Below the pieces are notes generated by a model that saw nothing but the letters and a program-made list of their open reading frames with translations, did no database searches and was not told the DNA's origin. From the IMG/VR virus record IMGVR_UViG_2541047928_000016: a stretch of DNA of 35,398 nucleotides; one strand, 5' to 3'. This DNA is from a virus (Duplodnaviria > Heunggongvirae > Uroviricota > Caudoviricetes). Shown piece by piece: positions 3,444 through 19,062 of the stretch. The translations under genes were made by a program, and so were the position numbers. Each line of letters starts with the position of its first letter. Position 1 is the stretch's first letter.

Positions 3444-3841
3444 GCAGAAACAGGCTCTGCAGGCCCGGCGTCCTCTGCCTGTTCAGGGGCATTATTCACC
3501 ACAAACTCAGACATTCCGGACAGACGTAACACCACGTTTTCAGCCTGAGAAATTGCCTCCGCGGGCCAGGTGGTAAGCACTTCCTGCTCAATCTGCGTAA
3601 TGGCTTCATTCATGGACAGCAGCTTTGTCTTCTGCGGATGGTTATGCCACAGAGACATCGCCACCAGAAACGCCCCGCCTCTGATAAGATCCTCTACAGA
3701 CACCTGCAGGTTGCCACTGGATTCAGCCTTTTTTTCCTGCTCTTTCAACCAGGCAAGATGCTCAATACGCTGCAGGGCTGACAGTTCAGAAAGCGTGACG
3801 GTCACGCCGTTATGTTCAAATGATTCTGTTTTCAGGAACAT
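3419..3841 (-). CDS. G: Tail assembly chaperone G (140 aa)
   Basis: 140-aa ORF upstream of H; ends ...SAGKCSTVS; contains slippery heptamer G GGA AAG (minus strand, plus coords 3437-3443). Confidence 0.9.
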   Translation of the reverse strand: MFLKTESFEHNGVTVTLSELSALQRIEHLAWLKEQEKKAESSGNLQVSVEDLIRGGAFLVAMSLWHNHPQKTKLLSMNEAITQIEQEVLTTWPAEAISQAENVVLRLSGMSEFVVNNAPEQAEDAGPAEPVSAGKCSTVS

Positions 3842-14603: not shown

Positions 14604-14777
14604 TCAGATTAAATTAATCTTGACATCATAGCTTTCAAGACCCGTCATTTTTTCCCGTGCGGTAAACTGAATACTGGTAACTTCTTTCCCGGTCTTTTTC
14701 TTAAGTTCAATAATTTTTTTTGTTATATATTCAGAAATATCTGCTTCTGCTTTTGTTTTTAAGTTTTCAATATTCAT
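14604..14777 (-). CDS. gnsB: GnsA/GnsB-family small protein (57 aa); below the ORF-track size cutoff
   Basis: Manual translation of minus strand: MNIENLKTKAEADISEYITKKIIELKKKTGKEVTSIQFTAREKMTGLESYDVKINLI, stop TGA at 14604-14606; tandem ATG-ATG start. Confidence 0.75.
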   Translation of the reverse strand: MNIENLKTKAEADISEYITKKIIELKKKTGKEVTSIQFTAREKMTGLESYDVKINLI

Positions 14778-14948
14778 CATTTCCTCTTTTAGTCTGTTAT
14801 GACTTTCCAGTTACACAGTAAGTCGATTATATGGTGCAAACGTGTAAAAGATAAGATGAAACATCGCAATAATCAACATACGATAGTCTAAATTTTACAT
14901 AAACAGACAAAGAGAATTTTCCTGAATTATCAATGCAATAGCATCAAA

Positions 14949-15179
14949 TCAACTCAAGAGCCTTATTGCTGCTTCCAGAATTTCTTCTGAAGTAACATGT
15001 CGATCCGCGGCTACATAAATGACTTTATGATCTCCGGTCAGAGATGGAAACCCTGCGGCCATTACAGTAAGGTGTGTTTTTTCGCCATTTGGATATTCAC
15101 GCATGATGGTGTTAACTCCAGTCATCGCTGGCACTACCACTGCTGGTTCAGAGTTAAAAAAAACTATGATTTTTTTCAT
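14949..15179 (-). CDS. Small hypothetical protein (76 aa from internal ATG; MKKIIVFFNSEPAVVVPAMTGVNTIMREYPNGEKTHLTVMAAG...)
   Basis: ORF-track 90-aa frame; start moved to ATG at 15177-15179; no strong RBS; located between gnsB and cspI as ynfN is in Qin, but identity not verified. Confidence 0.45.
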   Translation of the reverse strand: MKKIIVFFNSEPAVVVPAMTGVNTIMREYPNGEKTHLTVMAAGFPSLTGDHKVIYVAADRHVTSEEILEAAIRLLS

Positions 15180-15450
15180 GATGTTACCGTAGTATGTGAG
15201 TATCCATCGAATAGACACCAAGCAAAAAAGCTCCCGAAGGAGCCTTCATTTTCACTTTTTTAAATCCAACGACAGACGGCTGGCATTTAAGTATTGTGAA
15301 ATATTATCAAATGTAATCATCATTGATTTACAAAAGATACATTTTGCCCCGAAAGGATTCATGTCAGAAACATCAAAAGATGATGTTCTATACTGGGAAC
15401 CATGACAACACGGGCATCTAAAGTGAATATGGTTTGTAATATTGTCTACC

Positions 15451-15663
15451 TCAAAGCGCCACTACATGAACAGCGGCAGGACCTTTAGGTCCGTTCTCAA
15501 TACCAAATTCAACTTCCTGATTCTCAGTTAATGTTTTGAAATCGTTGCTCTGAATTGCTGAGAAATGGACAAACACATCTTTGCTGCCATCTTTCGGCGT
15601 GATGAAACCAAAACCTTTTTCAGGGTTAAACCATTTCACTAAACCAGTCATTTTGTTAGACAT
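15451..15663 (-). CDS. cspI: Cold shock protein, CspA family (70 aa), CspI-like
   Basis: [70 protein letters not shown]; RNP1 motif KGFGFI and RNP2 VFVHF. Confidence 0.9.
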
Positions 15664-17364: not shown

Positions 17365-17580
17365 TTACTCTCCTCTCGCAGCCTTACGCCTGTCTTCTTT
17401 AATCTTGAAATAAAGATTTGTCAGATACGTCAGCAGGCCAAAAACCAGGCTACCCAGCACACCGATTGCAGCCCACTGTGACGGAGTTACTTTATCGAGT
17501 AACTGCAATGCCCAGAAACCAGCATTACCCGCCGATGTGCCATAGGCAACACCTGTTGTTAACTTATCCATTGATTTCAT
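17365..17580 (-). CDS. Class II pinholin (phage 21 S-type) with dual-start motif MKSM (71/68 aa)
   Basis: From ATG 17578-17580: [71 protein letters not shown]; two TM segments; track ORF begins 25 codons further upstream. Confidence 0.85.
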
Positions 17581-17799
17581 ATCCTCACCCCGATGTACAC
17601 GGATGGTGCAATATGTTTGAAAAGATCGGAGTCTACGGGGTAGTTTTGACAGCACACGTTGTTCTCAACGGCGCTAAAAAAACATACACATTAAAAATGT
17701 GGGTAATTATTTTGAAAGAAAGTCATATATAAAATAATAATACGAGAAATGTTTTCATATTTAGTGTACTGTATACGGCCATTTATACAGGAAAAGCCT

Positions 17800-17970
17800 A
17801 TGTCAGAACGTAAAAACTCAAAATCACGCCGTAATTATCTCGTTAAATGTTCCTGCCCAAACTGCACCCAAGAGTCAGAACACAGTTTTTCAAGAGTACA
17901 AAAAGGTGCCCTTTTGATCTGCCCTCATTGCAACAAAGTATTCCAGACAAATCTTAAAGCTGTAGCCTGA
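17800..17970 (+). CDS. Small Cys-rich (zinc-ribbon-like) protein, 56 aa, antisense to the late-operon leader
   Basis: MSERKNSKSRRNYLVKCSCPNCTQESEHSFSRVQKGALLICPHCNKVFQTNLKAVA; CxCx2C ... Cx2C; AGGA 9 nt upstream of ATG 17800. Confidence 0.45.
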   Translation: MSERKNSKSRRNYLVKCSCPNCTQESEHSFSRVQKGALLICPHCNKVFQTNLKAVA

Positions 17971-18030
17971 TTGATTTTATTAGTAACAAGTATTTTTTAT
18001 ATTTTAATAATATATTTAAAGCAGATAATA

Positions 18031-18056
18031 AAAAACCCGCCTGAGCGGGTTTGAGA
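18031..18056 (-). terminator. Rho-independent terminator downstream of cspB (hairpin CCCGC-N4-GCGGG then T5 on minus strand); weaker in the plus direction
   Basis: Plus strand aaaaacccgcctgagcgggtttg. Confidence 0.5.
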
Positions 18057-18333
18057 TTGTGGTGCTTTTTGTGGGAGTCATCCACTTACGCACTTTGTTT
18101 TGCCATGCCAGCAGTTAGCTTCTGCTGTAAAACTATTCATGCAGCAAACCTGCACTTCACCACAATGGTTAGCATACTTTTCCTGATTAAGATTTTGCCA
18201 AATATGCTAGCCATTGTTTCATGTATTGGACCTCCTTACTTTTTATTAAAGAGATCCAATATTCACTACTCTGTCCGTATCTCTACTCAGGCATCAGCCT
18301 TCTTCGTTATCGTATACAGACGAGCGATGAATT

Positions 18334-18549
18334 TTAATCAGTAATGATGACATTTGCTGCTGCAGGACCTTTAGCACCACTCTCTATAGAGAAGGTAACC
18401 TTTTGACCTTCAAATAAGGTTCGATAATTATCATTCTGAATCGCAGAAAAATGCACAAACACATCTTTACTACCATCAACAGGAGAAATAAAGCCGAAAC
18501 CTTTATCAGCGTTAAACCATTTTACTAAACCAGTCATTTTATTTGACAT
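18334..18549 (-). CDS. cspB: Cold shock protein, CspA family (71 aa), CspB-like
   Basis: [71 protein letters not shown]; long upstream untranslated region (18550-18700) typical of cold-shock mRNAs. Confidence 0.9.
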
Positions 18550-18849
18550 TCTACATTCCTTAACTTGAGCCTTTCGGCATAAATGGTTTGCATAACAGAA
18601 ACGACTTCGTACTTAATTGGAGAGACTCAAAGAAGGAATAAGTGAATAACACCTGAAATGAGAACTGCTTTAGTAAACTACTTCGTATATCGTCTGTTCT
18701 TCAAACCGACGCAATCATTAACGCATAGTTGAACATATGAAGCAATGTTTATTTTAGACATCCAGCCATCTTCAACCCCATCAAAAAACTATAGCTTTCT
18801 TCAGGAACGTGTGTATAGTGCGCCAAGTTATCAGTATTAAGGAATTTTT

Positions 18850-19062
18850 TTGTCCCGTAAAATGACAGGAATTGTCAAAACCTTTGACGGCAAAAGCGGC
18901 AAGGGTCTTATCACCCCATCCGATGGTCGTATCGATGTCCAGCTTCATGTTTCAGCGCTCAATCTCCGCGATGCAGAAGAAATTACCACCGGATTACGCG
19001 TGGAATTTTGCCGGATAAATGGTCTGCGTGGCCCTTCAGCTGCCAATGTTTACCTTTCATGA
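18850..19062 (+). CDS. cspF: Cold shock protein family member (70 aa), CspF-like; track start is TTG, alternative ATG at 18862
   Basis: [70 protein letters not shown]; divergent from cspB. Confidence 0.8.

Follow-up and report, generated by a model that had tools for sequence, protein, structure and literature searches.

The small, predicted zinc-ribbon gene ynfU of the cryptic prophage Qin is under purifying selection in Enterobacteriaceae and is usually accompanied by cold-shock genes

What kind of gene, if any, is the short open reading frame (ORF) that lies against the direction of late transcription in a lambdoid prophage, and does it belong with the lysis genes on its one side or with the cold-shock gene on its other side? 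This question is raised by positions 17800 to 17970 of the window, being the whole stretch of 35,398 nucleotides that was analyzed (IMG/VR record IMGVR_UViG_2541047928_000016, classified in the Caudoviricetes). In a previous reading, made from the sequence only, this ORF was described as a small zinc-ribbon gene that was not recognized as an annotated K-12 Qin gene. The latter remark is out of date: over the 501 nucleotides that correspond to Escherichia coli K-12 MG1655 1640605-1641105, the DNA of the window is the same at 501 of 501 positions (100% identity), and the MG1655 RefSeq annotation at the ORF is ynfU (b4776, YP_010051186.1, "putative zinc-binding protein YnfU"), within the feature "cryptic prophage Qin." The region is present in 1,653 of the 5,426 complete E. 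coli genomes when searched by megablast, and wherever the ORF is covered, it is annotated as ynfU. The ORF of the window and YnfU (b4776; PF23499; NF038384) are the same gene, and there is no difference between the two. Clearly, ynfU is already known, having been found in 2019, being present in the reference annotation, and having its own Pfam and NCBIfam families.

The translation from the ATG at position 17800 is MSERKNSKSRRNYLVKCSCPNCTQESEHSFSRVQKGALLICPHCNKVFQTNLKAVA. This sequence scores 107.3 bits against Pfam PF23499 (cut-off 27, E=3.5e-31), with residues 1-49 aligned on profile positions 1-49 of 49, and 79.4 bits against NCBIfam NF038384, "YnfU family zinc-binding protein" (cut-off 36, E=1.1e-22). 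Membership of the YnfU family is given by these scores, above both curated cut-offs, and by the identity with the type member b4776. In the profile search that had been proposed together with the sequence-only reading, the YnfU family is thus matched well above its cut-offs, whereas all other zinc-ribbon families of Pfam and NCBIfam are below theirs. The features of the region are collected in Table 1.

Table 1. Position of ynfU, its signals, and its neighbors in the window
Feature	Position	Strand	Description and source
ynfU CDS	17800..17970	+	56 codons and TGA (stop 17968-17970); equals MG1655 1640805-1640975, b4776
Shine-Dalgarno CAGGAA	17788..17793	+	6-7 nt 5' of the ATG; AGGA core 17789-17792; read from the sequence
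-10-like hexamer TACTGT	17767..17772	+	Family consensus TAtgGT; putative promoter element from the upstream alignment
GC-rich hairpin AAACCCGCCTGAGCGGGTTT	18033..18052		Between convergent ynfU and cspB; strong intrinsic terminator on the - strand in the terminator scan
essQ, holin-like lysis gene	17365..17580	-	Divergent upstream neighbor of ynfU; ORF and MG1655 annotation
cspB, cold-shock-protein gene	18334..18549	-	Convergent with ynfU, its most conserved neighbor; ORF and annotation
cspA-type thermoregulator RNA element (cspB 5' UTR and coding region)	18318..18710	-	Rfam RF01766, 158.8 bits (gathering 78), E=1.2e-42
YmcF/YnfQ-type gene (PF23641)	15252..15440	-	Within the window

The small protein has been observed experimentally. 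Weaver et al. (10.1101/511675) found YnfU by ribosome profiling of stalled initiation complexes (Ribo-RET/Onc112) and confirmed the protein with a chromosomal SPA tag and western blotting; SPA-tagged YnfU was the most abundant among their new small proteins, and YnfU was the only one of these having a recognizable motif, described as two CPxC zinc knuckles, with a moderate threading match to PA0128. In RiboReport, ynfU has full Ribo-seq coverage and an enriched translation initiation site peak, and the gene is recovered independently by PIRT-seq (PMC12350097). Ribosome footprints had been named in the earlier note as a check on the ORF, and the published footprints, together with the initiation-site peak, favor a real gene. 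With high confidence, ynfU (b4776) of the cryptic lambdoid prophage Qin is a stand-alone gene, the product of which, a cytoplasmic protein of 56 residues, is made in vivo.

This is also in agreement with the conservation of the reading frame, which was analyzed in a comparative set of 80 ynfU loci obtained by scanning one genome per species. None of the 80 loci has a disrupted frame; the lengths are 51-60 codons, and the start is at the same aligned position (ATG in 78 loci and GTG in two). When the dN/dS ratio is calculated by the Nei-Gojobori method over the gap-free first 49 codons of the 74 distinct sequences, the median is 0.10, and when only pairs having a dS of less than 1 are taken, it is 0.087. 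The fractions of nonconsensus nucleotides at codon positions 1, 2, and 3 are 0.19, 0.08, and 0.40, respectively, and the five other frames over ynfU have on average between 1.2 and 3.7 stop codons. The conservation and dN/dS check that had been suggested for this ORF is therefore answered by a frame kept in every homologous locus and by a median ratio of about 0.09-0.10, and ynfU codes for a protein on which purifying selection is strong. The alternative, a chance ORF or the functionless remnant of a pseudogene, has only the small size and the location in a cryptic prophage in its favor; given the curated family matches (PF23499 and NF038384), the detected protein, the ribosome footprints, the conserved frame, and the low dN/dS ratio, its probability is negligible, and the earlier claim of a genuine coding gene for a small zinc ribbon is borne out.

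The same comparison also defines the start of the protein. The ORF list of the window contains a 73-residue version of this frame, starting from the ATG at position 17749. This version was rejected: among the 80 loci, the frame is open upstream of the ynfU start for anything between 1 and 93 codons, such that there is no conservation of the N-terminal extension, and the relatives all align from the Met of MSERK, preceded by a conserved Shine-Dalgarno sequence. The 56-residue frame and its AGGA ribosome-binding site, 7 nt 5' of the ATG, are both found as had been described before, and CAGGA(A/G) occurs at an equal distance from the start codon in nearly all 80 loci. The upstream consensus of 79 distinct sequences, when aligned, is cgTGTAtgGT...CCaTT..CAGGAa-N6-7-ATG, and the putative -10 element in this alignment (TACTGT in Qin) would give ynfU a leader of roughly 20-25 nt. 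A different match of the promoter scan, TTGAAA-18-AATAAT at 17712..17741, was set aside, as it is not conserved outside Escherichia; it is the -10-like hexamer that is conserved. No RNA element is found under ynfU in an Rfam scan of positions 17800-17970, and there are no tRNA genes in the window.

At its 3' side, ynfU is followed by the hairpin that separates it from cspB. On the + strand side of this hairpin in K-12, there is a short T run, giving a weak tail (TTTGAGATT). A hairpin with the same stem, AAACCCGC-loop-GCGGGTTT, with differing loops, recurs 3' of the gene in Escherichia, Citrobacter, Klebsiella, and Raoultella. In 17 loci, terminator scores are obtained for both of its strands, which is what one would expect if two convergent genes have one terminator in common. 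Two sub-threshold Rfam matches are also seen near this terminator.

In Qin, ynfU has the gene of the Q-like antiterminator, ydfT, on one side and the lysis cassette (essQ-ydfR-rrrQ-rzpQ) on the other, and its direction is against both. The gene is on the + strand, which agrees with the position claimed in the earlier note, opposite to late transcription and between the holin gene and the cspB terminator. ynfU is a moron-type insert that is transcribed in the direction opposite to the late operon of the phage and converges with cspB, the two genes sharing one hairpin, and the RF01766 element marks cspB as a cold-shock-type transcript. From this arrangement, it could be thought that the protein is secondary and that it is the transcription of ynfU, by convergent interference or as an antisense RNA, which silences essQ-rrrQ in the lysogen: ynfU and ydfT(Q)-cspB-essQ-rrrQ are encoded on opposite strands, ynfU lies immediately upstream of the holin gene, and the placement is equal in the active phages HannyBb and ST13-OXA48phi12.4. 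This explanation is very unlikely, as the selection acts strongly on the amino acid sequence (dN/dS about 0.1), the protein reaches readily detectable levels (10.1101/511675), and lysis genes are missing from the 1.5-kb surroundings of ynfU in 71 of the 80 loci.

The latter count comes from a comparison of the neighbors within 1.5 kb of ynfU in the 80 species loci, which are not phylogenetically independent. A csp gene is found in 58 of these loci and is absent in 22, and in 40 loci, a convergent csp gene is located within 1 kb downstream of ynfU. The arrangement of ynfU and csp varies, being convergent or co-directional, with csp upstream or downstream. A YnfN-like gene (57% identical to Qin YnfN) is present in 23 loci and a YmcF-like gene (PF23641) in 15, and at least one gene of these three kinds is seen in 64 of the 80 loci. 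An EssQ or RrrQ homolog, as a lysis gene, is found in only nine. The E. coli genome has roughly nine csp genes, and from this number, the chance of a csp gene being adjacent to ynfU is estimated to be less than 1%. By these counts, ynfU is physically linked to the cold-shock gene island, and it does not consistently co-occur with the lysis cassette. In Enterobacteriaceae, ynfU is mostly chromosomal and is linked to csp genes, often together with ynfN-like or ymcF-like genes of the cold-shock island, and not to lysis genes. It is this usual company of cold-shock genes, rather than of phage lysis genes, that is new here. The description of the ORF as part of the "late leader" is correct for its placement in Qin, but this placement is incidental when seen across species.

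In Klebsiella and Raoultella, ynfU is found in an ordinary chromosomal context, with neighbors that we take, from inspection of the ORFs by eye, to be a LysR-type regulator and genes of the acetoin (bud) operon. Phages also carry the gene: in phage PHB10, a block of ynfU, csp, and a cspF-like gene is located near the integrase gene, away from the lysis genes, whereas in Klebsiella phage ST13-OXA48phi12.4 and Escherichia phage HannyBb, ynfU adjoins the holin gene. YnfU is also encoded by the Tritos prophage of strain LF82. As Qin and several temperate phages have ynfU next to a holin gene, YnfU could be regarded as a factor for lysis timing or lysis inhibition, acting on the adjacent holin/endolysin cassette. 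Such a role is highly improbable, considering that lysis genes are rarely nearby across the species loci, that ynfU of PHB10 is far from the lysis genes and beside csp genes, that no PHROG family is matched by YnfU, and that its 56 residues show no hydrophobic stretch long enough to span a membrane. Membership of an anti-phage defense system is not indicated either, since no family is matched when YnfU is compared with the PADLOC models at E values up to 0.1.

The YnfU family is not widespread. A word-indexed protein search finds 49 clusters, in all of which the Pfam domain of YnfU is present in full or in part; their sources are Escherichia, Klebsiella, Enterobacter, Kosakonia, Citrobacter, Salmonella, Kluyvera, Lelliottia, and other genera. 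When 1.84 billion representative proteins are searched exhaustively with HMMER, only 40 clusters are returned at E <= 0.001, from which it follows that the family is narrow and centered on the Enterobacteriaceae. The most distant members, having 53-63 residues, keep the pattern TCPxC..SEHS..RV.K...LICPxC..LF; in the contigs of the two distant members that were examined, there is no csp gene, and the neighbors are DinI/Usp/ABM/YdhR or TetR/MFS genes.

The sequence of YnfU has the basic N-terminus and the cysteine pattern CxCx2C...Cx2C that had been noted before. The cysteines are arranged as C17-x-C19-x2-C22 and C40-x2-C43, and the first 16 residues include R4, K5, K8, R10, R11, and K16 against a single acidic residue, E3, giving a net charge of +5. 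Cys19, Cys22, Cys40, and Cys43 are invariant in all 80 loci, as is the SEHS sequence, and Cys17 is substituted in three loci. Also conserved are the SEHSF-x-RVQKG segment between the knuckles and, in the basic tail, R4, K5, R11, and N12, and the segment after Cys43 is the most variable part of the family. The AlphaFold2 model, calculated from a 25-sequence alignment, is of moderate confidence (mean pLDDT of 69.7, and 77-81 over residues 11-50). In this model, there are β-strands at residues 12-16, 25-29, 38-40, and 47-49 and a helix at residues 30-35, such that the order of the elements is strand, knuckle, strand, short helix, strand, knuckle, strand. The two CxxC knuckles are at the turns of the β-hairpins formed by strands 12-16/25-29 and 38-40/47-49, respectively, and the structural neighbors of the model are zinc ribbons. 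The predicted fold of YnfU is that of a generic zinc ribbon, in which a β-hairpin, a short helix, and a second β-hairpin follow each other.

When the model is compared with the PDB by Foldseek, the best matches are small zinc-finger proteins of archaeal ribosomes and HVO_2753 (9o17_AZ, 9znf_BV, 9fhl_C, and 6ydh; E=0.4-0.7), and in the BFVD, the matches are uncharacterized Cys-rich phage proteins (E >= 0.06). With the sequence profile, the PDB entries of L44e/eL42 are matched with E=0.028-1.5, over the first knuckle only, where CPxC...EHS is aligned. These matches, together with a basic tail that is like the extensions of ribosomal proteins, would fit with YnfU being a ribosome-associated zinc ribbon, either as an accessory or as a stress-specific binder. 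Nevertheless, none of the structural or profile matches is statistically significant, the NCBIfam model of L44e (NF004425) gives only 10.5 bits against a cut-off of 87, and low-level matches of this kind are generic for zinc ribbons. To our knowledge, there is also no YnfU density in the many E. coli ribosome structures. A dedicated ribosomal role is therefore considered to be unlikely, and membership of the eL42/L44e family is rejected.

For the role of YnfU, we prefer a reading in three steps. One zinc ion would organize the ribbon; it is very likely that Cys19, Cys22, Cys40, and Cys43 chelate one Zn2+. The basic tail and the conserved face between the knuckles would then bind a macromolecular partner, and YnfU may well be a small adaptor of which these two surfaces interact with nucleic acid, the ribosome, or a protein. 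Finally, the partner might belong to the cold-shock or stationary-phase stress response, centered on RNA and translation. Such a partner is the most plausible one because csp, ynfN-like, and ymcF-like genes so frequently surround ynfU, and it is conceivable, although somewhat doubtful, that the activity of YnfU is part of the cold-shock or stationary-phase stress program of its csp neighbors. Co-regulation with csp is not implied by the sequence, because the ynfU leader is apparently short, unlike the 5' UTRs of csp genes, which are long and thermosensing. In the literature searched, we found no cold-shift expression data for ynfU, and no report on zinc binding, a partner, cold induction, or a mutant phenotype of YnfU.

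The neighboring genes have been studied. In strain LF82, cspB, cspI, and ynfN are morons that are expressed from the active Tritos prophage (PMC9928086), and in long-term stationary phase, cspB, cspF, cspI, ynfN, and ydfK are co-upregulated (PMC7406224); the annotations used in these two studies do not contain ynfU. We tentatively propose, with still less confidence than for the link with the stress program, that csp, ymcF/ynfQ, ynfN, and ynfU form a mobile cold-shock/stress cassette, which moves between enterobacterial chromosomes and lambdoid prophages, and in which YnfU is functional and acts with or on the Csp RNA chaperones. It could, for example, be a zinc-ribbon factor that binds RNA or the ribosome and is needed when the cells adapt to cold or long-term stationary phase. 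If this is correct, a protein to which no function is assigned gains a physiological role, and the carriage of ynfU as a moron by temperate phages is explained. The csp linkage and the selection data are a small addition, and they make the function of YnfU experimentally approachable.

YnfU can be compared with several known families of small zinc proteins. The N-terminal zinc ribbon of PhnA/YjdM (PF08274; PA0128, PDB entry 2akl) has, as in YnfU, a zinc-ribbon knuckle pair, but the match to PF08274 is below the cut-off (E=1.3e-4, 22.4 versus 30.8 bits), and PA0128 is matched by the sequence profile with E=0.52 only, such that membership is rejected; PhnA proteins have a further C-terminal domain, which is absent from YnfU. 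The best profile match in the PDB is Tim15 (2e2z_A, E=0.012), a DNL zinc finger (Tim15/Zim17/Hep1, PF05180). In the alignment, C-xx-C..S.H..S....KG..LI.CPHC, several residues match around both knuckles, and the order of the secondary structure elements is the same. DNL fingers are escorts of mitochondrial and plastid Hsp70, and YnfU could by analogy be a bacterial counterpart that escorts or modulates DnaK. However, the zf-DNL match (E=0.074) has 13.5 bits against the required 27, the Tim15 match is likewise sub-threshold, and the region after the second CxxC, which carries the D-N-L motif, is not conserved in the YnfU family. YnfU is not a member of the DNL family by these results, and a role at Hsp70 has only a very small probability.

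Similar in size are small archaeal zinc-finger micro-proteins, being those of the HVO_2753 type and the ribosome-bound zinc fingers in M. acetivorans and Saccharolobus structures, which have 50-60 residues and a zinc-ribbon core, as YnfU is predicted to have, and which are its top structural neighbors. A similar setting is that of YmcF/YnfQ, the "cold shock small protein" (PF23641), the gene of which follows cspG/cspI; this protein likewise has about 60 residues and two Cys knuckles (CPCC...CIFC) and is found beside csp genes. The two are not homologous by the available comparison, since the hhalign probability is 2.6% over 7 columns and PF23641 is not among the Pfam matches of YnfU. The spacing of the knuckles and the motif between them also differ, and whereas the YmcF/YnfQ gene is co-directional with its csp gene and downstream of it, ynfU is usually convergent.

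The genes ynfU, gnsB and those of the ymcF-like, ynfN-like and csp types occur together repeatedly, in varying order and orientation (ynfU-bearing loci L006-L085, from species genomes), and they keep this company on the chromosomes of enterobacteria as well as in lambdoid prophages. Such a group resembles a mobile "cold-shock island", and in the window it occupies two segments (see the table). In the layout common in Enterobacter, ynfU is divergent from a ynfN-like gene and converges on a cspB-like gene. The ynfU copies of Klebsiella and Raoultella (L016-L029, L033) are in a core-chromosome setting, with a cspF-like gene located about 180-240 nt 3' of ynfU, and no phage genes are found in these 10-kb loci. 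When read by eye, nearby ORFs appear to include a gene for a LysR-type regulator and bud genes (acetolactate decarboxylase/synthase).

The shared terminator hairpin 3' of ynfU has a conserved stem and a freely varying loop. The stem, AAACCCGC / GCGGGTTT, is kept in the loci L012-L028 and in the window, and the loop varies by genus, being for example CTGA, TGGCT, TGAAT, CAGCGT or CATAGT.

Several contigs with ynfU have database entries assigned to Veillonella parvula (MAG), Vagococcus sp., Kocuria sabuli, a Bacillota MAG and Azospira oryzae (MAG); the entries labelled outside Enterobacterales are the loci L008, L030, L040 and L042 and the protein record P0003. In the flanks that were scanned there are homologues of csp, ynfN-like or lysis genes of the Enterobacteriaceae type, and the contigs are probably contaminating or mis-binned rather than genuine cases of ynfU outside Enterobacterales. 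Public records also disagree on the start and extent of ynfU, as seen for the phage HannyBb locus (L003) and the protein records P0050, P0058 and P0002. The calls include a 73-residue version with an upstream ATG start, read-through "fusions" of 167 and 186 residues and one copy named "Permease, cytosine/purine...", and the copies in phages Tritos and 2H10 have no annotation at all.

Coordinates of the features discussed (window positions, except for the HannyBb call)
Feature	Position	Strand	Remarks
Cold-shock gene group	14604..15663 and 17800..19062
YmcF-like Cys-rich small ORF	15252..15440	-	62 codons, ITNHIHFRCPCCHGSQYRTS...CIFCKS...
Terminator hairpin 3' of ynfU	18033..18052
Interval from hairpin to cspB stop codon	18053..18333		about 280 nt
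Second, weaker terminator-like site	18139..18155	-	within 18053..18333
cspA thermoregulator, Rfam RF01766	18318..18710	-	full-length match, 158.8 bits
ynfU call in phage HannyBb (L003)	3450..3671		example of inconsistent start/extent

The RF01766 match spans the cspB coding region and its 5' UTR. The interval that separates the strong hairpin terminator from the stop codon of cspB has no annotated feature, and on its + strand there is a single, spurious-looking ORF of 97 residues with a TTG start; this interval may be a long cspB 3' UTR or an unannotated RNA.

The YmcF-like ORF, which has cspI directly upstream, is a second zinc-knuckle micro-protein of the prophage that carries ynfU, and its sequence is unrelated to that of YnfU (hhalign probability 2.6%). 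In RefSeq it is named ynfQ, or "cold shock small protein YmcF", with a non-canonical Ile codon, AT[TCA], annotated as its first codon, and because of this start it is missing from the ORF listing of the window.

When 1 kb is compared with MG1655, the sole difference is found at about 15708, in the 5' UTR of cspI (- strand), where the window has a run of seven A and MG1655 has eight. This shorter run causes the one-base coordinate shift relative to the MG1655 and J53 annotations, and the window is therefore K-12-like, without being exactly identical to MG1655 at this site.
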